Origin: Eubacteriales bacterium | GTDB taxonomy: Bacteria > Bacillota > Clostridia > Oscillospirales > SIG627 | Length of the DNA: 64,000 nt | NCBI GenBank assembly: GCA_045594565.1 | Contig: JAZNYT010000054.1 | Location: 734 to 64,733, forward strand | Direction: 5' to 3' | Shown: piece after piece, positions 11,521 through 29,500 of the stretch | Layout: each line of letters opens with the position of its first letter | Position numbering within the stretch: position 1 is the stretch's first letter | Translations under genes and position numbers: made by a program | The notes under the pieces: model-generated | Told to the model about the DNA's origin: nothing | Seen by the model: only the letters and a program-made list of their open reading frames with translations | Database searches by the model: none

Positions 11521-13149
11521 TTAAAGTTTTATATTTCTGACTTTTTCACGCAGCCTCAGAACGTGGGGAGGTGATACCGAGAGTTCGTCTATTCCCATTT
11601 CAAGAAAGTCCTTTGTAAGAGAAAGGTCAGCGGCAAGTTCACCGCAGATACCTATCCACGCACCATGGCGGTGGGCATTATCCGACGCCGTACGAATAAG
11701 CCTCATCACTGCCTCGTGATGAGGATTTGAGAATTCCTCAAGCTTCGGGTTCTGTCTGTCACAGGCGAGGGTATACTGGATAAGGTCGTTTGTTCCAACG
11801 CTGAAAAAGTCGAAAAGGGGCGCCAGTCTGTCGCTTATAATTGCGGCGGCAGGTGTCTCTATCATTATTCCAAGCTCAATATCACGGCTATATGCCGTGC
11901 CCTTAGCATCAAGCTCCTTCTTTACATCACCGCATATTTCAAGTATTTTTTCCGCCTCCCATACACTTGCAATCATAGGAAACATTATACCGAGCTTTCC
12001 GAAGGAGGAGGCGGCAAAAAGAGCGCGGAGCTGAGTCCTAAAGATTTCGGGGCGTGTGAGGCAGAGTCTTATGGCACGCAGTCCCAGCGCGGGATTTTCC
12101 TCGTTGTCGAGATTGAAGTATGACACTCTCTTGTCTGCACCAATATCAAGTGTTCTTATTATCACTCTTTTTCCGGGCATTGCAAGAAGCACCTTTTTGT
12201 ATATCTCAAACTGCTCCTCCTCGGTGGGAAAGTCATCCCTTTCCAGATATAAAAACTCGCTTCTGAAAAGTCCTATTCCGCCTGCATCGCTCGCAAGGGC
12301 TGACCCTATATCCTCGGCAGAGCCAATGTTGGCATAAATGTTTATTCTTCTGCCGTCAAGAGTGACGTTTTCCTTTCCTCGAAGGTTCTTTAAAAGCTCC
12401 TTTTTCTCGCGACACGCTTTTTCTTTTTCAAGAAGGCGCATCTTCGTTTCGGCGTCGGGGGATATGAAGATTTCTCCCGTACCCCCGTCCACCGCAACTA
12501 CGTCTCCCTCCTTCACGTTGAGAAGGAAGGAGTCGCCAACTCCGATTACCGCAGGAATATTCATACTTCTCGCTAAAATTGCGGTGTGTGAATTAGAGGA
12601 GCCGTGCGCCGTAATGAAGCCGAGTATCTTGCTTTTGTCAAAAAGCACCGTTTCTGAGGGCGTCAGGTCGTAGGCGCATATTATGGAGGGCTGCGATAGA
12701 TTACTCATACCGTTTGTGTCCTCTGTCATACAAGCGATAAGTCTGTCTGAAACGTCCTTTACGTCAATGGCGCGTGATTTCATATAATGGTCGTCCATAG
12801 AAGAGAACATTTCGGAAAAATTGCTCGACGTGATAGATACGGCGTATTCGGCGTTTACCTTCTGATACTCTATAATGCTCTTTATCGACTCCGAAAAGTC
12901 CTCGTCGTCAAGCATCATTATATGAATCTGGAAAATTTCAGCCCCTGTTTCACCAACCTCGCGAAGCGCTTTCTCATAGATTTCGGATAGTATGGCTTTG
13001 GCTTTCTCACGCGCTTTTTCGAATCGTTTTATTTCCGCTTCTGCATCCTCTATCCCTTTACGGCGTATCTTCGTTTCCTTTTTTTTGAAAACGGTAACGG
13101 GGCCTTGTGCTATAGCACCCGAGATGCCTTTTCCTATAAATTTAAGCAT
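11521..13149 (-). CDS. ptsI: phosphoenolpyruvate-protein phosphotransferase (PTS enzyme I)
   Basis: 542 aa. Has the active-site region GFITAHGSSNSHTAILARSMNIPAV and the C-terminal PEP-utilizer motif FFSVGTNDLIQYTLA. Follows ptsH. Confidence 0.95.
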   Translation of the reverse strand: MLKFIGKGISGAIAQGPVTVFKKKETKIRRKGIEDAEAEIKRFEKAREKAKAILSEIYEKALREVGETGAEIFQIHIMMLDDEDFSESIKSIIEYQKVNAEYAVSITSSNFSEMFSSMDDHYMKSRAIDVKDVSDRLIACMTEDTNGMSNLSQPSIICAYDLTPSETVLFDKSKILGFITAHGSSNSHTAILARSMNIPAVIGVGDSFLLNVKEGDVVAVDGGTGEIFISPDAETKMRLLEKEKACREKKELLKNLRGKENVTLDGRRINIYANIGSAEDIGSALASDAGGIGLFRSEFLYLERDDFPTEEEQFEIYKKVLLAMPGKRVIIRTLDIGADKRVSYFNLDNEENPALGLRAIRLCLTRPEIFRTQLRALFAASSFGKLGIMFPMIASVWEAEKILEICGDVKKELDAKGTAYSRDIELGIMIETPAAAIISDRLAPLFDFFSVGTNDLIQYTLACDRQNPKLEEFSNPHHEAVMRLIRTASDNAHRHGAWIGICGELAADLSLTKDFLEMGIDELSVSPPHVLRLREKVRNIKL

Positions 13150-13415: not shown

Positions 13416-15454
13416 TATTTCCTCCCGAGCTCACCTATTTCGTCACCAACGGATACCTCTCCCGTCTTTTTTGACTCAAAGGTAAATTCGTCCGAATTTG
13501 TCACTACCATAGGTGTTGTAAGCTTGTATCCGCTTTTACTGATGCCGTTTATATCAAAGGTAATAAGAAGGTCGCCGCGCTTTACCTCCGCCCCTTCCTT
13601 TACCGCTACCTTAAAGTGAAGTCCTTTGAGCTTTACGGTATCAAGACCTACGTGGAGAAGTATTTCGCCGCCATTATCTGTCTTGATATTTATAGCGTGA
13701 GAGGTGTCGAAGACGCTTTCCACCTTGCCGTCGCAGGGGGAAAAGAGCTTGCCCTCTGTGGGAAGAAAGGCGATACCTTCGCCGAGAATACCCTTGGAAA
13801 AGGCTTCATCCTCTACCTTGTCGAGAGGAATTATTTTACCCTTTACAGGAGAGAAAAGGGAAGTGGCTTCATTTTCCTTGTGGGATGAGTCCATATAGGC
13901 TTCGAGCTTTGATTTTACCACCGATACGTGAGGACCGTATATAACCTGAATACCGGTGCCCTTCTTAATTACCCCCGACGCTCCGCTCTTTTTAAGGGCG
14001 CTTTCATCGGCTTTATCGGGATTTTTGAGGGTGACTCTCAGTCTTGTGGCACAGCTATCAAGGTCGGCAATATTATCTTTTCCGCCAAGTCCTTGAAGGA
14101 TAAGAGCGCTCACGTCGTCGCCCTCATGGCGACGCGTCAGATAGTCCTCTTTCGTGTAAAGCTTTGATTCCTCGCCTTCTGCCTCACGACCCGGTGTTTT
14201 AAAGTCGAATTTCTTTATAAGGAAATAGAAAACGAAGTAGTAAATAACTGCATAAACAAGACCTACAAGCACTATCCATATCCAGTTGGTTTTGGAATTG
14301 CCCTGTAGTATACCGAAAAGGGTCAAGTCGATAACCCCTCCCGAAAATGTCATGCCTACGCCGACGTTCAGAATGTGCATCAGCATATAAGAAAGACCTG
14401 CAAGTATACAGTGCACGATATACATAAGAGGGGCAACGAAAAGGAAGGTGAACTCTATCGGCTCTGTAATACCCGTAAGAATTGAGGTGAGAGATGCGGA
14501 GAGAAGAAGTCCTCCCACAAGCTTTTTCTTTTCGGGCTTTGCCGTTTTATACATAGCAAGGGCGGCGGCAGGAAGACCGAAAATCATAAAGGGGAACTTA
14601 CCCGACATAAAACGTGTTGCAGATACCGAGAACACCTCGGTTGCCTTTGAGGCAAGCTCGGCGAAGAAGATGTTTTGCGCACCCTGAACGAGATTACCGT
14701 CGACAAAGACAGCCCCGCCAAGCTCTGTCTGCCAAAAGGGCATATAGAATACGTGGTGAAGTCCGAAGGGAATGAGGGCACGTTCGATGATTCCATATAT
14801 CCAGGTGCCGATATATCCCGAATTCAGAACAAGGTTTCCGAGAGTGGCGATTCCAGTCTGTATAGGCTGCCATATATAGAACATCAGAATTCCGACAACA
14901 AGGTAGGTAAGCGCCGAAATGATAGGTACGAATCTGGTACCGCCGAAGAATGAAAGCACCTGTGGAAGCTTTATGGTATAGAAGCGGTTGTGAAGCGCCG
15001 CAACGCCGAGACCTACGATAATACCGCCGAAAACACCCATCTGAAGCGTTGTGATGCCAAGCACCGAGGCGGTAGTGTTTTCACCGAGTGCTGTCACTCC
15101 GCCGTTTATATTTATAAGGGCGGAAATGGCGGCGTTCATAACGAGAAAGGCGATAGCACCCGACAGAGCGGCAACCTCCTTCTCCTTTTTAGCCATACCG
15201 ATGGCAACGCCGACGGCAAAAAGAAGGGCGAGATTGTCGAAAATGACACTGCCCGTTTTTGCCATAATGTCAAGAATAGAATAAAGTATACTGCCCTGAC
15301 TTATGAGTCCTGTCAGTCCGTATTCCTCAAGAGTTGTGGGATTGGTAAAGGATGATCCTATACCGAGAAGAAGTCCTGCAACGGGAAGGAGCGCTATGGG
15401 GAGCATAAACGATCTGCCTACTCTTTGCAGTACAGAAAAGAATTTGTCCTTCAA
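13415..15454 (-). CDS. PTS glucose/N-acetylglucosamine-family transporter, fused EIICBA
   Basis: 679 aa. N-terminal EIIC (LQRVGRSFMLPIALLPVAGLLLGIG), EIIB cysteine motif (DSCATRLRV), and a C-terminal EIIA-Glc domain (HAINIKTDNGGEILLHVGLDTV). TTG start 9 nt after GGAGG. Confidence 0.9.
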   Translation of the reverse strand: MKDKFFSVLQRVGRSFMLPIALLPVAGLLLGIGSSFTNPTTLEEYGLTGLISQGSILYSILDIMAKTGSVIFDNLALLFAVGVAIGMAKKEKEVAALSGAIAFLVMNAAISALININGGVTALGENTTASVLGITTLQMGVFGGIIVGLGVAALHNRFYTIKLPQVLSFFGGTRFVPIISALTYLVVGILMFYIWQPIQTGIATLGNLVLNSGYIGTWIYGIIERALIPFGLHHVFYMPFWQTELGGAVFVDGNLVQGAQNIFFAELASKATEVFSVSATRFMSGKFPFMIFGLPAAALAMYKTAKPEKKKLVGGLLLSASLTSILTGITEPIEFTFLFVAPLMYIVHCILAGLSYMLMHILNVGVGMTFSGGVIDLTLFGILQGNSKTNWIWIVLVGLVYAVIYYFVFYFLIKKFDFKTPGREAEGEESKLYTKEDYLTRRHEGDDVSALILQGLGGKDNIADLDSCATRLRVTLKNPDKADESALKKSGASGVIKKGTGIQVIYGPHVSVVKSKLEAYMDSSHKENEATSLFSPVKGKIIPLDKVEDEAFSKGILGEGIAFLPTEGKLFSPCDGKVESVFDTSHAINIKTDNGGEILLHVGLDTVKLKGLHFKVAVKEGAEVKRGDLLITFDINGISKSGYKLTTPMVVTNSDEFTFESKKTGEVSVGDEIGELGRK

Positions 15455-18448: not shown

Positions 18449-18467
18449 TTTCTCCCTCCTTTGTATG

Positions 18468-18494
18468 AAGTGTATTAAGTGACCTAGTACACTT
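18468..18494. promoter_or_regulatory. palindromic operator candidate for the YtrA-like repressor
   Basis: AAGTGTATTAAGT-G-ACCTAGTACACTT is an inverted repeat matching at 11 of 13 positions per arm. It sits between the -10 box (18497-18502) and the regulator RBS, and it contains GT...AC cores typical of GntR operators. Confidence 0.5.
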
Positions 18495-18496
18495 GT

Positions 18497-18525
18497 ATAT
18501 TAACACAACAAAAATCATTTGTCAA
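18497..18525 (-). promoter_or_regulatory. sigma-A promoter of the GntR-ABC operon
   Basis: On the minus strand: TTGACA (18525-18520), 17-nt spacer, TAATAT (18502-18497). Confidence 0.6.
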
Positions 18526-18648
18526 TACCCTATTAAAAATTTTTATAAAAGAGTTTTTAGTGGGTCTTAAAGTTGTCATATACATGTCATTGTATGGCAG
18601 TCCGTGTCATGATACAGTAAGGTTGTCAGAAGAAGGGAGGTGATAAAA

Positions 18649-18849
18649 ATGACATTCTTTATTGTAACCGTGACGATGCTTCTGCTGCTTGAGGTCATGG
18701 TTTTTGTGGGGGTAATAAAGCTTGTGTCAGAGCTTTCCGGAAGCTACGAGGAAAGTGACACTCCCAAAGTCCCCCGAGCCGAGGGACAGGACTTCTGGCA
18801 AAACATAATTTCCTACGACCATAAAAAGAAAGGAGGCGATAAGGATTGA
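18649..18849 (+). CDS. small single-pass membrane protein (holin-like or unknown), first gene of the phage-like operon
   Basis: From ORF 18640..18849. ATG 18649 lies 9 nt after GGGAGG. Has an N-terminal TM helix (FFIVTVTMLLLLEVMVFVGVIKLV) and a charged tail. Its stop overlaps the portal start. Confidence 0.5.
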   Translation: MTFFIVTVTMLLLLEVMVFVGVIKLVSELSGSYEESDTPKVPRAEGQDFWQNIISYDHKKKGGDKD

Positions 18850-20423
18850 AAAACAGAAGAAAGGAAGAGATTTCAGAGGATTTTGAGCTTCTTGAAAAGG
18901 GACGTGAATATAACCGTTCGGTAAACTTTTACGACACCGTAAACAAAAATGAACGCTTCTGGCGAGGCGACCAGTGGAACGGAGTTGTAAGCGGAGGGCT
19001 TCCCACCCCTGTGTTTAACATCTTCAAAAGAGTAATCGGCTATTTCGTATCGAATATTATGTCGGCAAAGATTGCTTTGAAGATAGATGCGGAGAGTGCG
19101 GGCGTCATTTACAAAAAAGAAGTGAGAGAGGATCTTGTGAAGGTTTGTGAGCTTATTTCCTCATACCTTAACTACCGCTTTGAAAAGGATAATATGACCT
19201 CACTCCTTTATGACGGAGTGAAGGATGCAACCCTCAGCGGAGATATGTTTCTTTACGTGTACTGGGACAGAAAAAAACGTACTGCTCAGCAGTATACGGG
19301 AGATTTTGCAACGAAGCTTCTTGATGCCACTAACGTTTTCTTCGGTGACGTAAACACGAGCGACGTACAGAGTCAGCCTTATATTCTCATATCGGGCAGA
19401 GGTCTTGTAGAGGAGCTGAGGGAGGAAGCGAGAAGCTACGGAATTCCCGAAAGTGACGTTATGCGTATCGTATCTGACAGCGATACTACCGACGAGGCGG
19501 GAGACAGAGCGAAGAGTGAGCTTCGTGATACGAAGTGTACCTACGTTATAAAGCTTTACCGCAAAAACGGTACCATTCACTACCGCAAGAGCGTAAGAGG
19601 TACTGTTATAACAAGTGAGATAGACACAAAGCTTACCCTTTATCCCTTGGTGCTTATGAACTGGGATAAGACGAAAAACTCCTATCACGGCACTGCCGCC
19701 GCAACGGGACTTATTGAAAATCAGATATACATCAATAAAGCCTTTGCCATGGTAATGAAGCATATGATAAACGTATCCTTCTCAAAGGTAGTGTATAACC
19801 AGAACGTCATTGACGAATGGACAAACGAGGTAGGAGAGGCGATAGGCGTTAACGGTCCTGTTGACAGTGTGGCAGAGGTGCTTTCTCCCGGTGTTATGCA
19901 GTCGGGATTCCTCGATGTCATTAACCTCACCATGTCACTTACCCGTGAGCTTATGGGAGCAACGGATGCGGCTCTCGGTAACGTTGAGCCCACCAACACC
20001 TCGGCAATAATTGCTCTTCAGGAGTCTTCCTCGGTACCTCTTGAAATTCAGAAGAGGGCGCTTTATATGGCTATTGAGGAGCTTGGACTTATATGGATTG
20101 ACTATATTCTCCATTATTATGACAGGCACCGAATGCTTATGTGGCGTGACAAGGGAGAGCTGAGAGGCGATATGATGGAGGTGGAGCGTTACAAGGACGT
20201 AATATTCTCCTGTACGGTATCTGCAGGTATGACGGGATACTGGAGCGAGATAGCAAGTCTTAACACGCTCGAAAATCTTCTTTCATCAGGACTTATTACA
20301 CTTGAGCAGTACCTTGAAAGACTGCCCGAGGGGTACATAACGGCAAAGGAAGCCCTTATCGAGGATTGCAGGAAGGTAAAAGAAAAAGAGGAGGCAGAAA
20401 ATGACGGCAAGACAGGTTTATAA
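18846..20423 (+). CDS. phage portal protein
   Basis: 525 aa with a TTG start 10 nt after AGGAGG. The N-terminal ERFWRGDQWNG resembles the conserved ...QW... motif near the N-terminus of P22-type and other podoviral portals. Size and position at the head of a capsid module fit a portal. Confidence 0.6.
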   Translation: MKNRRKEEISEDFELLEKGREYNRSVNFYDTVNKNERFWRGDQWNGVVSGGLPTPVFNIFKRVIGYFVSNIMSAKIALKIDAESAGVIYKKEVREDLVKVCELISSYLNYRFEKDNMTSLLYDGVKDATLSGDMFLYVYWDRKKRTAQQYTGDFATKLLDATNVFFGDVNTSDVQSQPYILISGRGLVEELREEARSYGIPESDVMRIVSDSDTTDEAGDRAKSELRDTKCTYVIKLYRKNGTIHYRKSVRGTVITSEIDTKLTLYPLVLMNWDKTKNSYHGTAAATGLIENQIYINKAFAMVMKHMINVSFSKVVYNQNVIDEWTNEVGEAIGVNGPVDSVAEVLSPGVMQSGFLDVINLTMSLTRELMGATDAALGNVEPTNTSAIIALQESSSVPLEIQKRALYMAIEELGLIWIDYILHYYDRHRMLMWRDKGELRGDMMEVERYKDVIFSCTVSAGMTGYWSEIASLNTLENLLSSGLITLEQYLERLPEGYITAKEALIEDCRKVKEKEEAENDGKTGL

Positions 20424-20820
20424 CAGAGCGATTGCACTGATAAACGAGCGTAGCAGCGGCGGTGCATACCACGAGGACGTGGAGGATTTCGAAAAGAATG
20501 CGCCTGAGGTAATGAACTCCATTATCACTCTCTTATGGCCAAGTCAGTGCATCATTGAAAAAAAGAAGCTGAAGGCGTTGTCCTGGGACTTTAATCCCAT
20601 CGGCTCGATGGATGACGAGATACCTTTGCATATATCACTTGCATCGGGGCCCTTGCCCTTCGCTCTTGCCTCATTCCTTCTTTTAGAGGAGGATGCACAG
20701 CGCGCTGATTATTTCTATACACTTTTTAAAAAGAGCGAGGAAAGCGTGATGAAAAGCTTTGCTTATGCAACTCACACTAAAATAAGGGATATATATTCAG
20801 GTGATGTAAATGGCGCGTGA
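20401..20820 (+). CDS. hypothetical phage protein (possible head-tail adaptor)
   Basis: 139 aa. ATG lies 6 nt after GAGGAGG. Overlaps the portal gene by 23 nt and the next gene by 11 nt. The function is guessed only from its position between the portal and a large structural protein. Confidence 0.35.
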   Translation: MTARQVYNRAIALINERSSGGAYHEDVEDFEKNAPEVMNSIITLLWPSQCIIEKKKLKALSWDFNPIGSMDDEIPLHISLASGPLPFALASFLLLEEDAQRADYFYTLFKKSEESVMKSFAYATHTKIRDIYSGDVNGA

Positions 20821-22549
20821 TTTCAAGGTACAGATAAACGGATTCCTCGGACTTAACGAAAGCGGACCGAGCGAGGGACGCATAAAATCGGGTGAAAGTC
20901 CCAAAATGAAAAATCTTAAAATTACGCCGTCCTACTCTCTTGCCCTTCGCGAAGGCTATGAGCGCCTTGCGGAATTCGGGGGAGATGGCAGAGGTGTTAC
21001 TGTGTCGGACGGGGTGATTTACGCCGTTTCGGGCAAAACGGTTTTCTCCTTCGATGGTGAAATAAAGGAGGTAGGAGAGCTTGAAAGCGATAGCGGTAGG
21101 GTGTCCTTTCTCCACTTTGGAAAATGTATTTACATCCTTGACGGAGTAAAAATAAAGAAGCTTTCCGAAGGTACACTTTCCGATATTGACCCTTACGTGC
21201 CTCTTATTGCGGTGTCCACCGACGTGAACGGAGGAGGGGTGCCCTTTGAGGATATAAATCTTCTTACTCCGAAAAGACGCCAGTCCTTTACGCTGGACAG
21301 AGACCATACGCGAATAATTCTTGCAGAAAAGAATATCGATTCGGTAATATCTGTAAAGGTACTTGGTGAGGAGCTTCCGAAATCGGCGTACACAGTATAC
21401 CTTGAAGAAGGCGAGATTCAGCTTTCAAGTAACAATCCCTCCACAGAAATAAACGCTTACGAGGTCACTTATTCCAAGGCAATTCCCGAGGAGAATAACC
21501 CTCACAGAATGAGATATGCGGTCCTTTGGGGCGGTGACAACGATACAAGAGTGTTTTTGTGGGGAGATGATGAAAAGCCCGACGTTTACAGATATTCGGG
21601 AGTGCATGACGGCATTTCGGATATGGACTATTTTCCCGAGCTTTCGTTTAATAAAAGCGCGACGGGAAGACCTGTGACCTCTCTTATAAGGCACTATGAC
21701 AGGCTTCTTATATTTACCGACAGGGAGGCTTATTACTCCTATATCGAGAAGAAGAGTGATGCTTCGGGAAATGAGTATCTTTCGTTCCCCGTAAGGACTC
21801 TCTCCTCAGAGGTGGGGTGCGCTTATGCGGGAACTGCGGTGCTTGTGGATAATACACCAATAACTTTTTCGGGTACCTCCCTTTACAGATGGGTGTCTAC
21901 TACCGTAAGAGATGAAAGAAACGCCGAGGAAATAGGCGCAAGAATCAGAAAAGGTCTTATGTTTCTATCGAAGGGACTGTCGGTTTTCGACAGAATGGGA
22001 AGCGGTGAGGTCTACCTCTGGAGAGAGGGAAAAATTTACGTTTATAACTACCGCCTCGACCTTTTCTATTATTATGAGGGCATTGACGCCGCGGCCTTTT
22101 GCGAGGACGGGGAAGGAAATTGCTTCTTTCTCACATCCGGTGGTGATCTTTGCCGTATGACAGAGGAGTCTCGTGACCTGGGACGTCCGGTAAGTTTCGA
22201 ATGGGAGACGGGCTATAGCGAATATGCAGGACTCGATACCAAGAATATACATAGTATTGAGTTCGAGGTAATTCCTAAAAGCTCGGTATCCTTTGACATA
22301 TTTTGGGCATCCGATACTATGACCGGCAAGGGTATTGGTGTTGGTGCCGAATACAAGGTGCTTGACTTTGAGAGTCTTAACTTTTCCCGCTTCAGCTTTA
22401 AGACTGCCATAACCCCTATAAGACTCAGAAAAAGAGTGAAGCTGAAAAGGCAGAAAAGCTTTAAGCTTATTGTGAAAAGCAGCGAAAACAGTCTTGATTT
22501 TCATCTTGTTTCCCTTTGCATCAGGGGAAGAATAACCGATGCAATATAA
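20810..22549 (+). CDS. phage structural protein, beta-rich (possible tail hub/nozzle)
   Basis: 579 aa with no Walker A motif, so it is not a terminase. It has repeated short beta-strand/turn segments suggestive of a propeller. The position after the portal and adaptor-like genes recalls P22 gp4/gp10. Confidence 0.4.
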   Translation: MARDFKVQINGFLGLNESGPSEGRIKSGESPKMKNLKITPSYSLALREGYERLAEFGGDGRGVTVSDGVIYAVSGKTVFSFDGEIKEVGELESDSGRVSFLHFGKCIYILDGVKIKKLSEGTLSDIDPYVPLIAVSTDVNGGGVPFEDINLLTPKRRQSFTLDRDHTRIILAEKNIDSVISVKVLGEELPKSAYTVYLEEGEIQLSSNNPSTEINAYEVTYSKAIPEENNPHRMRYAVLWGGDNDTRVFLWGDDEKPDVYRYSGVHDGISDMDYFPELSFNKSATGRPVTSLIRHYDRLLIFTDREAYYSYIEKKSDASGNEYLSFPVRTLSSEVGCAYAGTAVLVDNTPITFSGTSLYRWVSTTVRDERNAEEIGARIRKGLMFLSKGLSVFDRMGSGEVYLWREGKIYVYNYRLDLFYYYEGIDAAAFCEDGEGNCFFLTSGGDLCRMTEESRDLGRPVSFEWETGYSEYAGLDTKNIHSIEFEVIPKSSVSFDIFWASDTMTGKGIGVGAEYKVLDFESLNFSRFSFKTAITPIRLRKRVKLKRQKSFKLIVKSSENSLDFHLVSLCIRGRITDAI

Positions 22550-22567
22550 AACAGAAAGGAATAAAAA

Positions 22568-22996
22568 ATGAAGAAAAATACAGAAAAGATCCTCCGTGAG
22601 CTTGATGTCGAAAAAGATGGCAACGCTCTCGATATGGAGGAGCTTGAAGCATTCCGTCTCGAAAAGAGAGTCAAGAAGAATCTGGAAGAGGAAATAAAGA
22701 AGCTTTTAGAAATCTTCCCCGACTTTGATACCGAGACGATTCCCGATGAGGTTTTCGATAAGTGCGAGGACGGACGCGGTCTTGCCGCAGAATACGCGCT
22801 TTGGTATCTTACCGAGGAGAAGAGAAAGGGAGAACAGCAGAAAAAGGAAGAAGAGAATGACAAATCTGCTCCTCCTAACGTAAAGGATTCCTCCGAGCCT
22901 CTTTACTTTACACCCGAACAGGTGAGAGCGATGAGCGAGTCGGAGATAAGAAAAAACTATAAAACTATTATGAATTCCATGGAGAAATGGAAGTAA
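22568..22996 (+). CDS. scaffolding-like protein
   Basis: 142 aa, strongly charged and Glu/Lys-rich, predicted helical. Lies immediately upstream of the capsid gene. Confidence 0.5.
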   Translation: MKKNTEKILRELDVEKDGNALDMEELEAFRLEKRVKKNLEEEIKKLLEIFPDFDTETIPDEVFDKCEDGRGLAAEYALWYLTEEKRKGEQQKKEEENDKSAPPNVKDSSEPLYFTPEQVRAMSESEIRKNYKTIMNSMEKWK

Positions 22997-23042
22997 GAAA
23001 ATAAGAAAGGATTGCGGTAAAACCGCAAAAAGGTAAAAAATA

Positions 23043-23864
23043 ATGGCAATTACAAACTTTATTCCCACAGTATGGAGCGAGGCTCTTTACGAGGAGCTTC
23101 AGAAGAACTACGTAGGCGTTAAGCTCTGTTCAAGAGAATTTGAGGGCGATATCAAGACTCAGGGCGACAGAGTAAAAATCAACGGTCTTGGTCCCGTGAC
23201 CGTGTTCAACTACACCAAGAATACAAATATGCCTACCCCCGAGGTGCTTTCCGATAACACAAGAACACTCGTTATCGATCAGGCGAAGGGCTTTAACTTC
23301 TGCATCGACGCTATCGACGACGTGCAGTCATCTCCCAAGCTTGTTCAGGCGGCGATGAAGAGAGCTGCGGAAGCACTCAGCGACGTTGCAGATAAGTATA
23401 TCTACTCTCTTTACGACCCTGAAGTACAGTTCATCGTTGAAGAAAATCTTACCGTTGACAACGTAGTTAAGCTCTTCAGCGATGCAAGACGTATTCTCAT
23501 GGAAAACAACGTGCCCAATTCGGCAAAAATTTCCCTTGAAATTCCCCCTGCGGTAGAGCAGGTGCTCGTTATGGCAAATCTTCTTACCGACACCAACAAC
23601 TCCGAAACACTTTCAAGAGGCTATATCGGTAAGATGCTCGGCTTTGATATCTACGTTACAAATAATATCGAGCGCAACGAATCCGATTTCTTCAGATGCG
23701 TTGCACGTACCGACCGCGCAATCGCATATGCGGAGCAGATAAACTCTATCAAGCCCTATGAGCCTGAACTCAGAAACGGTACTGCTGTAAAGGGTCTTCA
23801 CCTTTACGGTGCAAAGATTGTATATCCTAAGGAAATGGTATTCATCGATATCGGTTCTTGTTAA
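23043..23864 (+). CDS. major capsid protein (HK97-fold, small P22-coat-like type)
   Basis: 273 aa. The N-terminus AITNFIPTVWSEALYEEL...QGDRVKING and the C-terminal ...AVKGLHLYGAKIVYPKEMV resemble the conserved ends of HK97-fold coat proteins. Preceded by a scaffold-like gene and followed by a strong hairpin. Confidence 0.6.
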   Translation: MAITNFIPTVWSEALYEELQKNYVGVKLCSREFEGDIKTQGDRVKINGLGPVTVFNYTKNTNMPTPEVLSDNTRTLVIDQAKGFNFCIDAIDDVQSSPKLVQAAMKRAAEALSDVADKYIYSLYDPEVQFIVEENLTVDNVVKLFSDARRILMENNVPNSAKISLEIPPAVEQVLVMANLLTDTNNSETLSRGYIGKMLGFDIYVTNNIERNESDFFRCVARTDRAIAYAEQINSIKPYEPELRNGTAVKGLHLYGAKIVYPKEMVFIDIGSC

Positions 23865-23873
23865 AAAAGCATA

Positions 23874-23904
23874 TTCCGATACCCCCTTTTTGGGGGTATC
23901 GGAA
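23874..23904 (+). terminator. strong hairpin after the capsid gene (partial terminator or mRNA stabiliser)
   Basis: Perfect 13-bp stem ttccgataccccc/gggggtatcggaa with a ttttt loop. There is no U-tract; the next gene's RBS follows directly. Confidence 0.5.
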
Positions 23905-23923
23905 ATAAAGGAGGATTGAACAT

Positions 23924-24880
23924 ATGAATTTTACAGAGTTTTCCGAAAACGTTAAAAACGTATCGGAACTTCCCGACCGTCCCGATCTTGAAAACGGGTA
24001 TACCTCCGATATGCTCAAAGGGATTTTCGATAAGGCAGGAGAGGATATCAAGAGCTTTATCAACGGTGTTCTTTTGAAGGAGCTTACCTCCGCTGCCGAT
24101 ATCTTCAGCGGTGCCGACAGAATAGGCAGTGGTACAATTGATATTATCGAAGGAAAAACCGTTCAGGAAAAGCTTCAGAGTATTGCGGGGCATATAAAGG
24201 GACTTGCAAACGGAACGCTTCCCGACGGCTCTGTGACTCCCGATAAGTTTTCACCGGAAATAGCAGACTTTCTCACCTCTGCATCTATAAGACGTGAGAT
24301 TTTAACACAGGTAGGTGAAAGTACCTTTGAGGCACCCCGTGACGGCATTTATAAGATAACTATGGTCGGCGGCGGAGCAGGAGGAGGACAGGACCCCGAT
24401 TACGGATACCATTCCTGCGGAGGAGGCTCGGGGGCAGGTGTCATTCTTTGGTGTGAAATGAAAAAGGGAGATATCTGCACCATTCGTATCGGTAAAGGCG
24501 GAAAAGGTTTTGTCTACAGTGACGGGAATATTTCGGTTGCAACCGAGGGAGAGGATACCGAGCTTTATATAAATGATACCCTTCGTGCGAGGGCAAAGGG
24601 AGGAACTCTCGGTCTTAACGTGAGGGCGCTAGGCGAGGGCGGAGACCTGAATTTTTCAGGTGGATTTCCCAAGGTTGGAGACTACTTCAATTCAAGCACA
24701 TCCCCTGCCGTTATATTTTCTATCGGAGGTGACTCCATACTCGGAAACGGTGCCGCCTTCAGAGAAGATTCCGTGGGATACGGCGGAGGAGGCTTTGCCT
24801 CCCGACGCTTCGATTCCCAAAATTACCACAACGGCACAGACGGCGGAAACGGCGCAGCTATTATAGAATATATGAAATAA
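23924..24880 (+). CDS. phage tail fibre / receptor-binding protein with glycine-rich C-terminal domain
   Basis: 318 aa. The N-terminal LPDRPD...YTSDMLKGIFDKAGEDIKSFING is common in Firmicutes prophage fibre proteins. The C-terminal half has GGGAGGG...GGGSGAG...GGGGF glycine-rich beta-domain motifs. Confidence 0.55.
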   Translation: MNFTEFSENVKNVSELPDRPDLENGYTSDMLKGIFDKAGEDIKSFINGVLLKELTSAADIFSGADRIGSGTIDIIEGKTVQEKLQSIAGHIKGLANGTLPDGSVTPDKFSPEIADFLTSASIRREILTQVGESTFEAPRDGIYKITMVGGGAGGGQDPDYGYHSCGGGSGAGVILWCEMKKGDICTIRIGKGGKGFVYSDGNISVATEGEDTELYINDTLRARAKGGTLGLNVRALGEGGDLNFSGGFPKVGDYFNSSTSPAVIFSIGGDSILGNGAAFREDSVGYGGGGFASRRFDSQNYHNGTDGGNGAAIIEYMK

Positions 24881-24892
24881 GAAGGTGAAAAT

Positions 24893-25465
24893 TTGGCAAT
24901 AAAAGAATATTCATACGAAAAAAACGGTAACGACAAGCTCAGTGAGCATTTCAGAGTAAAGGAATTCCGTGCAAGAAGGGGAGGTATCCTCGACGGAGAC
25001 AGAATACTCGTTTCCGACGAGCTTATCATAAAGCTTGAAAAGCTTTCCCGCGCCGTGAAATATAAGCCTGTAGTTGTAACCGACGGCTACAGGACGGAGG
25101 AATACGACAGACTTCTAACGGGAAGGACAGGTCAGCATACCAAAGGACTTGCCGCCGACGTGAGAGTGGAGGGGTATACCTCATATGAGCTTGCGGCTAT
25201 TGCCGAAATGCTGGGCTTTGACGGTATCGGAATTATAAACGGCAGAGCGGTACATCTCGACGTGAGAGGATATAAGAGCTTCTTCGTTGAAAAAAGCGCA
25301 TCTGCAACCGATACCTACAGCGTAAAAACCTTTCTTTGTACAGAAACCTTTATGGCACTTACGAAAAAGCTTTTCGGACTTGGCGACAATACCGTTGAGT
25401 ACATGAGAAAATGGAAGTGGTTCGACCTTCTTTTCGAAAAGCTCGTAAAGGGCGCAGTATACTAA
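24893..25465 (+). CDS. peptidase M15 family (D-alanyl-D-alanine carboxypeptidase-like) cell-wall hydrolase / endolysin
   Basis: 190 aa with a TTG start 6 nt after AAGGTG. SEHFRVKEF..., VTDGYRTEEY and HTKGLAADV match the zinc-ligand His/Asp context of M15A/DUF882-type phage lysins. Confidence 0.65.
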   Translation: MAIKEYSYEKNGNDKLSEHFRVKEFRARRGGILDGDRILVSDELIIKLEKLSRAVKYKPVVVTDGYRTEEYDRLLTGRTGQHTKGLAADVRVEGYTSYELAAIAEMLGFDGIGIINGRAVHLDVRGYKSFFVEKSASATDTYSVKTFLCTETFMALTKKLFGLGDNTVEYMRKWKWFDLLFEKLVKGAVY

Positions 25466-25481
25466 TGAAAGGAGGGATAAA

Positions 25482-26441
25482 ATGGCAAGTACGTTAAAAA
25501 GCCTTTCGAGCTCGGTGCTCAAAAGCTTCGACAATTCTCTCTCAAGGCTCACCGCAAGATATCTTGCAACCATTTCAAATATAGACACATCTCACAATAA
25601 CAGGCTGAAGGAAATTTCGGGAGAGGCGCAGAAAAAGAAAAACTCTGCCGACGCTTCGGCAAAGATTGCTCTTGCAAATACGAAGGCCGGTCTTCTTCAG
25701 AAGGGCCTTTCAAGGTCGGGGGATTCGGTACAGGCGGAGCTTGACAATAATCTTGCAAGAATGTCGGCAATATCCTCCATTGAGGAAGAAGCGGAAAAGT
25801 CTAAAAGGCAGACAGAGGAAAGCAGAAGCGAGGCAAAAAACTCGGCGTTTATCGGTTATCTTAACGACGTGAACGGTCTTGAGAAGGCGAGAAACGAGGC
25901 GTATCGAAATCAGCTTAACCTTGACCGCGACTATGAGGCGGATCGCGATGACGAGATATATGACCGCTTTGCAGATAACCGCGACTACGAGGCGAAGCGT
26001 GATGACGAGATATACGACCGCTTTGCGGACAACCGCGACTACGAGGCGAAGCGTGATGACGAGATATACGACCGTTTTGCGGACAACCGTGACTACGAGG
26101 CGGAGCGTGATGACGAGATATATGACCGCTTTGCAGACAACCGCGACTATGAGGCGGATCGCGATGACGAGATATACGACAGATATAGGGAAAGTCAAAA
26201 GGATGAGGATGGTGATAGCTCAGAGGGAGCAAGCGGAGAGGAAAAGATTGTTCCCAAGTACAGTCCTAAGGTGCTGGTAGACAAGATTTTTTCTAATAAC
26301 AGAACGAAATATTATTCTGATTCCAAAAAGCAGTATTCCGAGACGAAGAAAGCAATAGAGGCTATAATCGAGGATGAAAGTCTGGACTATTCCTATCGCT
26401 ATCAGGTTAAAATATACGCAAAAGCGCTGGGATTTATTTAA
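25482..26441 (+). CDS. phage protein with five 18-aa tandem repeats (possible internal/ejection protein)
   Basis: 319 aa, helical and charged. The central RDYEA(D/K/E)RDDEIYDRFADN unit repeats about 4.8 times. It is the last gene before the operon terminator. Confidence 0.5.
   Translation: MASTLKSLSSSVLKSFDNSLSRLTARYLATISNIDTSHNNRLKEISGEAQKKKNSADASAKIALANTKAGLLQKGLSRSGDSVQAELDNNLARMSAISSIEEEAEKSKRQTEESRSEAKNSAFIGYLNDVNGLEKARNEAYRNQLNLDRDYEADRDDEIYDRFADNRDYEAKRDDEIYDRFADNRDYEAKRDDEIYDRFADNRDYEAERDDEIYDRFADNRDYEADRDDEIYDRYRESQKDEDGDSSEGASGEEKIVPKYSPKVLVDKIFSNNRTKYYSDSKKQYSETKKAIEAIIEDESLDYSYRYQVKIYAKALGFI
25926..26186 (+). repeat. 54-bp in-frame tandem repeat, about 4.8 copies
   Basis: Units start at 25926, 25980, 26034, 26088 and 26142 (cgcgactaYgaggcgRRNcgYgatgacgagatataYgaccgYtttgcRgaNaac). 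The copies differ at a few mostly synonymous positions. Confidence 0.9.
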
Positions 26442-26447
26442 AAATAA

Positions 26448-26478
26448 GGCAAAGGGAATTTCCCTTTGCCGTATTTTT
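26448..26478 (+). terminator. intrinsic terminator closing the phage-like operon
   Basis: 10-11-bp stem ggcaaagggaa/ttccctttgcc followed by gtattttt. Confidence 0.7.
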
Positions 26479-26531
26479 GTATATTTTATCCTTTGGAAGC
26501 CAATACTTTTTTCAGGAAAAGAGGTATAAAA

Positions 26532-29500
26532 ATGGAAAAGAGCAGAATAAAAGAAATACTTATAAAAATGAAAGAAACTGAGGGGTGGAGGGATTTTAAG
26601 TGTGAATCCTTTCGCCGTGCATACCGCACTCTTAAAAAATATACGAAAAAGGTGAAAGAAAGGGAGAGTGTAAACGGACGTTGGCTTTACGAAAACTTCT
26701 ATCTGTTAGAGGAGAGCTATGCTACCGTAAAAGCCGAACACTTCCCCCGCAGTATTCGAGCCGTATCGGCGTTTCTTGTAAAGGCTATGGCGGATTCCTC
26801 GGATATACAGGATGGGATATCGGCTTTCTTCGAAACCCTTTCCGAAGCTTTTTCGGACGAGGAGATAGAAAAGCTTTACCCATCACTTCTTCTTGAGAGT
26901 ATTATCCTTATAAAAAAAGAGCTCCTTTCGGGCGGTGAGGTGAGCCTTTATATAAACCTTATAAGACGGCTTTCGGAGTTTGATTTTTCCCCCTTTTATC
27001 TTGGCTTTTTTTCTTATGAGCAGAGTCTTAGGCGTGACCCTTTGTATCAAAGGCTGGATAGGGAAACGAAGGCGCTTTATAAAGAGAAGATAAAAAAATA
27101 TGCAAAAAAGCGCGGTGTGACCTTCTCCGCCGCCTGTGTTAACCTTTCCGCAGAAGCAGAAGAGAAAAAGTGTCACATAGGTGAGCTTTTGGATTTTTCA
27201 CGTTCAAGGAAGGGATGGCTTTTCCTTTTTGCCGCAGTTTTCGGCATCCTTTTGTATATCTCGTTTAAAACGATTTTTTTCACCTTCGAGCCGTTTTTCG
27301 CCGTTCCTTTGTTTCTTCTTTTTGTCATTCCCATGAAGGAAACCGCCTTTATGCTAACGGTGCCTCTGGTGGCTTTTTTCGAAAAGTCTGAAATCCTTCC
27401 CCGCGTTTCTATAGGAAGGGTAGGAGAGGAGAATGCTACTCTTACCGTCACCGCAACTCTTTTAACGAGCGAGGAGGAGGTAAAAAAAGCATTTCGCCAC
27501 CTTGAAAATTTAAGCCTTAAAACAAGGAGCAGAGGTAAGGATGATGGAGAGGTCTACTACGGAATTCTCTCTGACCTTCCTGAAAGTGATACCAAAAAGA
27601 CAAGAATAGACGACAAGATAAGGGCGGCGGCAAAAAAAGAGGCAGACCGCTTGAATTCTCTTTACGGTAACCGCTTTGTTTTCTTTTCACGAGAGCGCGT
27701 AAAGGATGAAAAAAGCGGAAGGTACGTGGCGTGGGAAAGGAAAAGAGGGGCTATAAACGAGCTTGTAAGACTTCTTTCGGGGCTTTCGTCCCGACTTGAA
27801 GCGTATGGGGCGGTGTTGCCGAAAATCAAATACGTCATTACTCTTGACAGTGATACGGATATGGAGCTTGGTGCGCTGAATAAGATGATAGGCACCATGG
27901 CGCATCCTCTGAATAAACCGCAGATAGAAGAAAAACGCGGAGTAAAAAGAGTGGTGAGGGGATTCGGTATTTTGCAGCCTACGGTGGCGACTTCACTTGA
28001 ATCGGCACACGCCACAGGCTTTTCGTCTCTTATGACGGGGGTGGGAGGGGTTGATTCCTATCACGGTGCGGTATTCAATCTGAACCACGTTTTATTCGGC
28101 AAGGGTATTTTTTGCGGCAAAGGAATTTTTGATGTAGAAGCTTATCGTGAAACGGTGCTTGAAGCTTTTCCGGACGGCATCATTCTCAGTCACGATATTC
28201 TTGAGGGTACAAGACTTTCGGCAGGCCATCTTTCCGACGTTACCGTTTTCGACGGTGTACCCTCGGGAGTAATATCCTATTACAAAAGAGCGCACCGCTG
28301 GGTAAGGGGTGACGTGCAGAGCATGAGGTTTGTAACTCATTTCGTTCCATCACCTGACGGATGGGTAAAAAATCCTATGGAAGCCGACGAAAAATTCGTT
28401 TTTATAAATAATCTATTAAATGTATTTATGCCTGCTTGTCAGATGGCGGGATTGTTTATCTTAATGCTGTGTCAGGGAGAGAGGGCAATTTTTACAGCCT
28501 TTCTATTACTCCTCCCCCTCGTTACCCCTCTTGTTATAGAGGTTTTACGTTCGATTATCTCGGGCAGACTCGAAACTCTTATCAGACGTTTTTTCGGAGA
28601 TACGGTAACTACTCTTTGCCGTGAGCTTGTTATGGTAGGATTCAGGTTTTCGAGCCTTGCTTTTACCGCATATAACAATTTAGACGCAGCTTTTCGCGCT
28701 TTTTGGCGTATGACGGTGTCGAAAAAAAAGCTTCTTGAGTGGACTACGGCAAATTCTCTTGAGGGCAAGAAAAGTCCCTTTATATCGGTGCTTTTTTATA
28801 CCTTTCCCTCTGTTATGGCAGGTGCTTTTGCACTCCTCTTCGCAAGGCTTTCGCTGATCAAGCTTCTTGGTATTCTGTGGTGCCTTTTTCCTCTTTTTTC
28901 GTACTTTCTTTCCAAAAAGAAAACGTCTTACGACAGAAGCCGTCACTACCGTCAGGCGTTTTTGCGTTATGCCGGAGATATATGGCGCTATTTTGAAAAG
29001 TACGTTGATGCATCGGGAAATTTTCTGCCTCCCGACAACGTTTCGGTGTTTCCTTCATCCGAAATTGCTATGCGAACGTCGCCAACCAATATAGGACTCT
29101 ATCTTCTTTCGGTGCTTGCCGCCATGGATTTCGGATTTATTTCGGTGCAATCGGGTGTTGACAGAATTGAGAAGACCACAGACACTATAGAAAAACTTCC
29201 AAAGTACAAGGGGCAGCTTTATAACTGGTACAGCACCGTTACGCTTGAGCCTATAGGGAAAGAATATATTTCAACGGTGGACTGCGGAAACTTTGTAACA
29301 TCCCTTGTGGCTCTTTTTGAGGGACTTTCGGAATATGAGATGGCAGACAGGAGAATAACCGAGCTGAAAAAGAGAATAAAGGCTATAGAGGAAGGGTCTG
29401 AGTTCAGATTTCTGTATAACTCGAAAAGAGAGCTTTTCTCTCTTGGCTTTTTCCCCGACAGAGAGGAGCAGGACGGGATAGTTTACGATATGTATATGAG

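Follow-up and report, generated by a model that had tools for sequence, protein, structure and literature searches.

We analysed a 64,000-nucleotide stretch of DNA from a Eubacteriales bacterium (Oscillospirales, SIG627; assembly GCA_045594565.1, contig JAZNYT010000054.1, positions 734 to 64,733 of the forward strand; hereafter the window), in which a block of nine phage-type genes lies among host genes. This locus is best read as the structural part of a new, split variant of gene transfer agent (GTA), and the block is probably the head-tail-lysis operon of a chromosomally fixed, multi-locus, vertically inherited and podovirus-like GTA (viriform). The cassette is inherited vertically together with its flanks, under purifying selection, across 13 or more species of Oscillospiraceae-type Clostridia, all uncultured, and genes for the small and large terminase subunits (TerS and TerL) were found at a second conserved chromosomal locus that carries the same promoter element. 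An initial annotation of the block, made without database searches, had listed several uses for such a module, of which the GTA-like one survived the present analysis.

A vertically inherited cassette under purifying selection

Open reading frame (ORF) calling placed nine intact, co-directional and tightly packed ORFs on the + strand at window positions 18640-26441, exactly where the initial annotation had them. The block and its signals are as follows.

18574..18618, + strand: putative promoter/operator (conserved upstream region)
18640..18849, + strand: g1, small single-pass membrane protein (ORF with hydrophobic N-terminus)
18846..20423, + strand: g2, portal of P22/Page type, 525 aa (family matches)
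20401..20820, + strand: g3, probable head-to-tail adaptor, 139 aa (predicted fold)
20810..22549, + strand: g4, tail nozzle/hub, 579 aa (predicted fold)
22568..22996, + strand: g5, scaffolding protein candidate, 142 aa (position, composition)
23043..23864, + strand: g6, major capsid protein, 273 aa (family matches)
23874..23904, + strand: hairpin (folding energy against shuffles)
23924..24880, + strand: g7, tail fibre/receptor-binding protein, 318 aa (family matches)
24893..25465, + strand: g8, M15 peptidoglycan peptidase, 190 aa (family matches)
25482..26441, + strand: g9, charged repeat protein, 319 aa (tandem repeat; putative role from position and composition)
26448..26480, + strand: intrinsic terminator closing the operon (10-bp stem at 26448-26470, then T-run)

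A capsid-gene scan restricted to one genome per species returned 32 loci, which fell into three groups. Group 1 comprises 12 species of uncultured Oscillospiraceae/Eubacteriales from animal guts. In 11 of these species (L003, L004, L005, L007, L008, L009, L010, L018, L026, L031 and L033) the same nine genes lie in the same order beside a GntR-ATP-binding cassette (ABC) transporter operon, with a gene for a giant GH94 protein, SipL or both on the other side except in L009 and L026; the L026 contig ends within g9, and the twelfth species, L006, is represented by a 2-kb fragment. An in-place inversion of all 7.8 kb of the cassette, promoter element included, is seen in L004 and L005 (5596-13480) between the GH94 giant and the GntR-ABC operon. 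The block was present in every group-1 species recovered and no pseudogenes were seen: the eight larger ORFs are intact in 12 of 12 genomes (the window plus 11 species), with g1 recovered in five.

Within group 1, the ratio of nonsynonymous to synonymous substitution rates (dN/dS) ranged from 0.03 to 0.25 across the eight larger genes (portal: 0.035-0.09; capsid: 0.03-0.10; peptidase: 0.03-0.08; g9: 0.08-0.17), compared with 0.05-0.20 in the flanking ABC, GntR and membrane genes. The highest values of the eight belonged to the fibre gene g7 (0.12-0.25), as expected for a receptor binder. Synonymous divergence (dS) between the window and L003 was 0.5-1.1 in the eight larger genes, 0.31 in g1 and 0.51-0.68 in the flanks, and distance matrices of head genes, tail genes and flanks were correlated with one another (r = 0.87-0.95, Mantel P ≤ 0.001). 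Both the synteny and the dN/dS comparisons had been put forward as checks by the initial annotation, whose proposal of a domesticated particle-forming module in place of a decaying prophage is borne out by the 11-species synteny, the intact ORFs, the range of dN/dS and a dS equal to that of the flanks; pseudogenes, relaxed selection and patchy distribution, the marks of a decaying prophage, were not found at the block.

The two other groups carry related sets of genes. Group 2 (15 species) has a six- to seven-gene version in phage order (portal, scaffold, capsid, adaptor, nozzle, sometimes fibre, and g9), set in a host context and lacking both the peptidase and an adjacent terminase. Group 3, made up of six of the 32 capsid-scan loci and at least 584 matching stretches from the terminase scan described below, is mostly a compact cluster of TerS, TerL, nozzle, portal, scaffold and capsid genes, with L027 and L028 ordered differently, and may be another GTA-like family. 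In the group-3 loci (L027-L032 and L035-L114) adaptor, fibre and lysis genes are not adjacent to the cluster; in L030 (3833-10834) an XRE helix-turn-helix gene lies ahead of it and the host flanks are DUF2344 and Dus. Genes of the same families for TerS, TerL, portal, scaffold, capsid and nozzle also occur in ordinary phage order in L001 (MT836592.1, an unannotated 9.6-kb human faecal scaffold deposited as "Bacteriophage sp."), which may represent a stretch of a phage genome or else packaged DNA.

Terminase at a second locus and the shared promoter element

A first profile scan for TerL kept the best 80 of at least 584 hits, dominated by group 3, and was uninformative on group-1 genomes; the search was then re-run with TerL from a group-2 metagenome-assembled genome (MAG), followed by TerL from a group-1 MAG. 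In one group-2 MAG, TerL lies 6 kb from the block. The group-2 query recovered orthologues in further MAGs of its own group and in a single MAG of group 1, and the group-1 query recovered an orthologue in 12 of 12 group-1 MAGs and 14 of 15 group-2 MAGs. Group-1 TerL is always on a different contig from the block and stands in an invariant gene order, namely type III glutamine synthetase (GlnA3), hydrolase, PGI, TerS, TerL, large serine recombinase, PrmA and RsmE. Group-1 TerS has 139 aa and a weak match to GP3_package/phrog_606, and TerL has Terminase_3/6N domains. TerL is constrained (dN/dS 0.017-0.044) and co-diverges with the block and with housekeeping genes (r = 0.89-0.96, Mantel P ≤ 0.001). 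MAG GCA_017378555.1 belongs to the window's own species, its block contig being 98.7% identical to the window in nucleotide sequence, and it carries GlnA3, PGI, TerS and TerL, with the promoter motif, on another contig. The initial annotation had stated that the block lacks any terminase: this is true of the block and of the 64-kb window but false of the genome, because relatives and the own-species MAG carry TerS-TerL elsewhere. Its description of the block as self-contained falls for the same reason.

The large serine recombinase directly 3′ of TerL is intact in every group-1 genome (∼450 aa; Resolvase, Recombinase and Zn_ribbon_recom domains; loci L136-L145 and L185), with a dN/dS of 0.03-0.05; in L142, for example, it occupies 11533-12879, between PGI and PrmA. 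One possibility is that it descends from the integrase of the ancestral phage and has been domesticated; another is that it has a separate role. In group 2, genes for thiamine pyrophosphokinase and the thiamine transporter YuaJ lie on the opposite strand between TerS and TerL (e.g., L115 8103-11203), so that the terminase pair is split into two transcription units, and a QueG-like gene follows 3′ of TerL.

The region upstream of the cassette is strongly conserved across group-1 species and is a putative promoter/operator (window 18574-18618). It contains phased TGTCA/TGGCA repeats at 18574, 18585, 18595 and 18605, a core 14-mer (GTCATTGTATGGCA) at 18586-18599, and a −35-like TTGTAT (18590-18595) followed by a 17-nt spacer and an extended −10, TGATACAGT (18610-18618). 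The 14-mer GTCATTKNATGKCA occurs once in the window (18586-18599) against 0.14 occurrences expected, one mismatch being allowed. Elsewhere it was found exactly once before the cassette in every group-1 locus, the inverted ones included and always on the gene strand, exactly once before TerS in every group-1 terminase locus, and at corresponding places in several group-2 loci, and it was absent from the 152 other loci searched. Cassette and terminase promoters are laid out alike, with TGTCA repeats recurring in phase every 10-11 bp, TTGTAT in the centre at −35, a gap of 17-18 nt and an extended or consensus −10. Two unlinked loci with one private promoter element are best explained as members of one regulon.

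Readings of the TGTCA repeats as a Pho-box, a WalR-box or a Spo0A-box were resemblances only and were dropped in favor of a link to DUF1492/sigma-region-4 proteins, set out below. In L009 a third copy of the element (13795-13808) lies just after g9, ahead of a 213-aa DnaD-like gene (13854-14492; phrog_2514, E = 2e-27), an arrangement also seen in L278; no homologue of this DnaD-like replication organiser of L009 was found in the other loci searched.

Gene products, RNA signals and surroundings of the block

The cassette encodes a portal, a capsid protein, a nozzle, a fibre and an M15 peptidase, and probably an adaptor and a scaffold. Hidden Markov model (HMM) searches agreed with the initial annotation on the portal, the HK97-type capsid protein, the Gly-rich fibre and the M15 peptidase. 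The portal g2, which contains the motif NERFWRGDQW, matched phrog_156 (E = 7e-32) and PF16510 P22_portal (E = 4e-11) and is 32% identical to the portal of the Bacillus podophage Page across 98% of its length. The capsid protein g6, of the P22-coat/PF25209 family with the HK97 fold, matched phrog_267 (E = 9e-42) and PF25209 (E = 6e-8) and shares 37-39% identity with its counterparts in phages D6E, AP45 and phiCP34O. The fibre g7 has a Gly-rich C-terminal domain (PF21722 Gly_rich_2, E = 1.5e-7) and matched the tail fibre family phrog_14469 in its N-terminal part (E = 3e-7). The peptidase g8, confined to group 1 as against groups 2 and 3, matched PF08291 (E = 3e-11) and the endolysin family phrog_894 (E = 4e-25), and is predicted to be either an endolysin or a virion-associated lysin. 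None of eight block proteins, the capsid included, matched NCBIfam (E ≤ 0.01).

Structure prediction carried the assignment of two further proteins. The 579-aa g4, which the initial annotation had called hub-like, gave an all-beta AlphaFold2 model (predicted local distance difference test [pLDDT] 87, pTM 0.84) whose Foldseek matches in the PDB, from rank 1 to rank 30, were all podovirus nozzle or hub proteins of T7 gp12, P22 gp10 and Sf6 gp8 types (E from 2.5e-19 to 5e-10; TMt 0.72 against P22 gp10), so the hub is a podovirus tail nozzle. In sequence it shares 26% identity with virion protein gp15 of Page, and a sequence-profile search of the PDB returned only 26fb_K (E = 0.0016), at the N-terminus alone. 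The 139-aa g3, earlier described as adaptor-like, is modeled as a helical bundle (pLDDT 80); the best 15 PDB fold matches were all Sf6 gp7 or P22 gp4 adaptors, each of them weak (E 0.07-0.9, TM 0.36-0.52), and neither a sequence-family match nor a match in the PDB sequence-profile search was found, so that g3 is probably a Sf6 gp7/P22 gp4-like adaptor. In the window and in L003 the usual stop of g3 after ...NVY is lost, which adds seven codons and an overlap with the start of the nozzle gene (window 20798-20820). The protein has 132 aa in eight group-1 species (L004, L005, L007, L008, L009, L018, L031 and L033), and L010 and L026 differ. Taken together, the tail parts are P22-like (a P22-family portal, a gp10-type hub and, by fold matches that are consistent but weak, a gp4-type adaptor).

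The remaining three proteins were assigned by position and character. The start of g1 is more likely the ATG at 18649 than 18640, which gives a protein of 66 aa; the gene is poorly conserved (tblastn recovered only five loci, and dN/dS was 0.36 against the closest relative, from a single informative pair), and its size, membrane segment and co-transcription with the M15 peptidase make it a possible holin candidate. For g5, no family match was found in HMM searches. It is acidic (25% D+E), lies directly 5′ of the capsid gene in all three gene orders, and shares 50% identity over its C-terminal 34 aa with the end of the ORF preceding the L001 capsid gene; position and composition suggest that it is probably the scaffold. 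The repeat claimed for g9 is real, with a period of 54 nt (an 18-aa unit) and 4.8 copies at 25924-26180. This protein is conserved in groups 1 and 2, and HMM and sequence-profile searches gave neither a family nor a PDB match, nor was a gp26-type needle identified; by position and composition it is a candidate tail plug, needle or ejection protein.

The strong hairpin that the initial annotation had placed after the capsid gene was recovered as a GC-rich stem of 13 bp (−25.9 kcal/mol, z = −4.67, rounded −4.7; 0 of 200 shuffles folded as well) with no U-tract on the + strand. A strong hairpin occupies the same spot in 12 of 12 species, with structure kept and sequence differing, and this structure may set capsid stoichiometry, either by terminating transcription in part or by stabilising the mRNA. 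A sigma-70-like site (TTGACA, 16 nt, TACTAT; 22293-22320) lies inside the end of the nozzle gene, ∼250 nt 5′ of the scaffold and capsid genes, in a scan that was overall no richer in such sites than shuffled sequence; this site and the post-capsid hairpin could mark a highly expressed sub-operon. The clean terminator described at the far end of the block also stood up, as a stem at 26448-26470 followed by a T-run.

On the left, the block is flanked by phosphotransferase system EI and EIIABC, an ABC transporter and a YtrA-like GntR regulator, and on the right by the GH94 giant (2326 aa, start at 26532; a host gene), SipL, an aminotransferase and an M20 peptidase. These housekeeping flanks had been described before, as had the absence of flanking repeats, of a composition step and of a Walker A ORF, and all of this holds: no att-like repeats were found around the block, no composition step at its edges and no Walker A motif in its nine genes. 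The block families recovered by HMM searches are structural and lytic only, with no integrase or replication genes among them, and the 64-kb window contains no tRNA and neither TerS nor TerL.

The GntR-ABC operon has a conserved − strand promoter of its own (TTGACA, 17 nt, TAATAT; region of window 18465-18498 and 18497-18525), where a conserved palindrome on the − strand, GTGTATTAA-N6-TTAGTACAC, resembles a YtrA-type autoregulatory operator. Promoter and palindrome appear unrelated to the cassette. The neighboring GntR was rejected as cassette regulator, because the cassette keeps its own promoter even where an inversion turns it away from GntR (L004 and L005) or where the two are no longer adjacent (L009), and a sporulation link through the adjoining SipL was set aside: no sporulation-sigma promoter features were found, and SipL is a syntenic host gene.

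Control, function and relation to known systems

An exact 17-mer scan of metagenome contigs for the promoter element gave 94 hits, mostly chance or eukaryote-like repeat, among which ∼15 phage contigs were informative. About 20 hits (JAABUP01 contigs, L187-L280) lie in a dispersed repeat (ATGTCATTGTATGTCAGAACATTTCAGTGAGTGTTG...) that appears eukaryotic and unrelated to the element. The ∼15 contigs, from gut and rumen, have the same promoter layout around the 17-mer, which stands ahead of HNH endonuclease, TerS, TerL or ParB-like nuclease genes and, in two cases, of a DnaD-like gene; the TerS genes behind it belong to PHROG families 51, 309 and 1206. HNH, TerS, TerL and ParB-like genes are the usual starts of packaging operons. 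A gene for a small DUF1492/Sigma70_r4 protein lies 5′ of the element, directly in L221 and L223, at 0.3-0.8 kb in most others and at ∼4.4 kb in L277, and the DUF1492/sigma-region-4 family resembles late activators of Gram-positive phages. The element is of phage type and origin, and what activates the cassette may be either the product of a domesticated gene at a third locus or a factor brought in by a phage.

If the cassette belongs to a split GTA, a dedicated activator, probably of the DUF1492/sigma-region-4 late-activator type, would switch on both loci together. Portal, scaffold and capsid protein would build small procapsids, which TerS-TerL would fill with host DNA by headful packaging, and adaptor, nozzle, fibre and g9 would close and arm the particle. 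The post-capsid hairpin would raise capsid mRNA relative to that of the tail genes, and the M15 peptidase would release the particles, with g1 as a possible holin. Because its genes are spread over two or more sites and include no function for replication or excision, the element cannot mobilise itself, and the inability of an element to transmit itself is what defines a GTA. Its phage-derived structural genes are fixed and vertically inherited (same flanks in 11 other species; dS; r = 0.87-0.96), eight of the nine genes and TerL are under purifying selection, and the genes are dispersed and unaccompanied by replication, integration or lysogeny genes, the serine recombinase after TerL being a caveat to the absence of integration genes.

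Several points weigh against the GTA reading. The system is known here from its genes alone, and particle production, DNA packaging and transfer are inferred from them, as are the roles of g1, g5 and g9. The link between block and terminase rests on MAG bins, although conserved synteny and co-divergence make mis-binning unlikely. By analogy, a PBSX-type particle can package DNA yet kill instead of transferring it. Lastly, tblastn and local HMM searches found no DUF1492/sigma-region-4 activator in the window or in ∼40 group-1 and group-2 loci; with the activator not found in the sequence searched, host control is unproven and induction by a phage is possible instead.

That last point opens the way to an explanation that we regard as unlikely but worth setting out, in which an infecting or induced phage supplies in trans the DUF1492/sigma-region-4 late activator that turns both loci on, the loci having none of their own. 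The cassette and terminase would then be immobile, host-owned "late genes" wired to the late-promoter element of the clade's phages, comparable to a phage-inducible chromosomal island (PICI) that has lost mobility, and the outcome would be either sabotage of the phage, whose late programme would be spent on host capsids and terminase, or the escape in particles of DNA from a host cell that is doomed and already undergoing lysis. Such wiring is in keeping with an element that precedes the packaging operons of several phage types (TerS of PHROG 51, 309 and 1206; HNH; ParB), with the activator gene 5′ of the element on the same phage contigs, and with its absence from the 64-kb window and the ∼40 loci of these genomes. 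However, these loci cover a small part of each genome, and it is equally possible that a third locus holds a domesticated activator, in the way that RcGTA has GafA, the one dedicated activator by which its dispersed loci are co-regulated. The element also stands ahead of DnaD-like replication genes (L009 and L278) and is therefore not strictly a late promoter, and interference alone would hardly account for a complete tail, a lysis enzyme and a fibre under diversifying pressure.

The analogy with PBSX points to a further and rather improbable reading, namely DNA-containing particles selected for killing or for some delivery other than that of genes. The gene content (particle, terminase and lysin) fits a PBSX-type particle as well as a GTA, the fibre is the fastest evolving of the eight larger genes, and the authors of the study of FpGTA, the agent of Faecalibacterium prausnitzii, voice the same caveat (PMC12946183, Discussion). 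Known killer particles are contractile or long-tailed, however, and for a short podovirus tail with a nozzle no mechanism of killing is known other than DNA ejection; sequence alone cannot separate such a particle from a GTA. A capsid put to some use other than DNA, as the initial annotation had allowed, is argued against by a TerS-TerL pair with the same promoter.

It is highly improbable that the block is a capsid-forming satellite, or what a deletion has left of a prophage, relying on the terminase of a helper phage: the block does lack terminase, integrase and replication genes, and compact capsid-gene clusters can be satellites (preprint 10.64898/2026.07.08.737213), but the site is the same in 11 other species, no att repeats or pseudogenes were found, these genomes carry a co-diverging TerS-TerL pair of their own, behind the same promoter and at a second site that is fixed, and thiamine genes between TerS and TerL in group 2 fit neither a mobile element nor a recent remnant. 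Conserved synteny, purifying selection and a block dS matching that of the flanks rule out a recent deletion remnant and a mobile satellite, the two further options that the initial annotation had kept in play, the satellite's borrowing of helper packaging being further contradicted by the terminase locus.

The closest analogue of the proposed GTA is, on the best reading of the evidence, FpGTA, which is alike in working but of a different family. FpGTA is podovirus-like, is encoded by two operons and has been shown experimentally to form 40-nm particles that package ∼8.5 kb of DNA (Borodovich et al., Nat Commun 2026, PMC12946183). The two systems share a host among gut Clostridia (Oscillospirales-type), a compact phage-derived gene set with podovirus-type tail genes, the absence of replication and integration genes, and a distribution of genes over two chromosomal loci. 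In FpGTA (CP030777), operon I (2536737-2546346) holds TerS, TerL, portal, a Prp-like protein and capsid and operon II (2672270-2677176) holds tail, fibre and lysis genes, whereas here a single operon combines the genes for head, tail and lysis and leaves only TerS-TerL apart. The FpGTA capsid protein (RCH50849.1) is named "N4-gp56 family" by NCBI and the block capsid belongs to PF25209/phrog_267 with no NCBIfam match, a comparison by family name only. No shared promoter element was reported for FpGTA, whereas the block and terminase loci share one. GTA-like packaging has also been described in gut Oscillospiraceae (Onthomonas and Pelethomonas), where the gene cluster was not identified (PMC12946183; bioRxiv 10.64898/2026.07.08.737213). 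Packaged lengths of 4.6-8.9 kb are reported in PMC12946183, and by analogy a GTA of the present kind would be expected to carry fragments of a few kb.

RcGTA and the other alphaproteobacterial GTAs (Rhodogtaviriformidae) resemble the present system in their multi-locus "genome", vertical inheritance and purifying selection, but they are siphovirus-like, keep TerS and TerL within the head-tail cluster, are built from unrelated protein families and reside in Gram-negative hosts. PBSX of Bacillus subtilis is likewise Gram-positive, chromosomally fixed and phage-derived, packaging host DNA and lysing its producer; it differs in being one contiguous cluster of ∼28 kb with a contractile-tailed particle and the terminase in the cluster, and it acts as a killing particle (as also cited within PMC12946183). 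The P22/Sf6-like and Page-like podoviruses share the P22-family portal, the gp4/gp7-like adaptor and the gp10/gp8-like hub, but are complete 40-kb phages with TerS-TerL directly 5′ of the portal and with replication and lysogeny modules, whereas the block measures only 7.8 kb and its order is rearranged to portal, adaptor, nozzle, scaffold and capsid. All of the nearest true phages (as regards portal and nozzle, the Page-like Bacillus podophages; as regards the capsid, D6E, AP45 and phiCP34O) have the terminase beside the head genes. Capsid-forming PICI (cf-PICI) satellites resemble the block in having a small cluster of capsid, portal and connector genes short of a complete phage; they are mobile, with integrase, att sites and replication genes, and none of their features (integrase, att sites, replication module and variable presence) was found at the block, which is syntenic across species.

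Earlier studies of Oscillospiraceae searched for prophage-like clusters that contain a terminase and would miss a terminase-less operon paired with an orphan TerS-TerL, the latter lying inside housekeeping genes and tied to the operon only through a shared 14-nt promoter element. If active, the system described here would be a second, independently domesticated podovirus-type GTA in gut Clostridia. The motif, together with co-divergence with the host, offers a search key for dispersed GTA regulons, and a DUF1492-type activator a handle on their regulation. Given the related clusters in many further species-level genomes (group 2, and group 3 with at least 584 stretches), gene flow by way of capsids may, in the gut and rumen, far exceed what annotated prophage content suggests.

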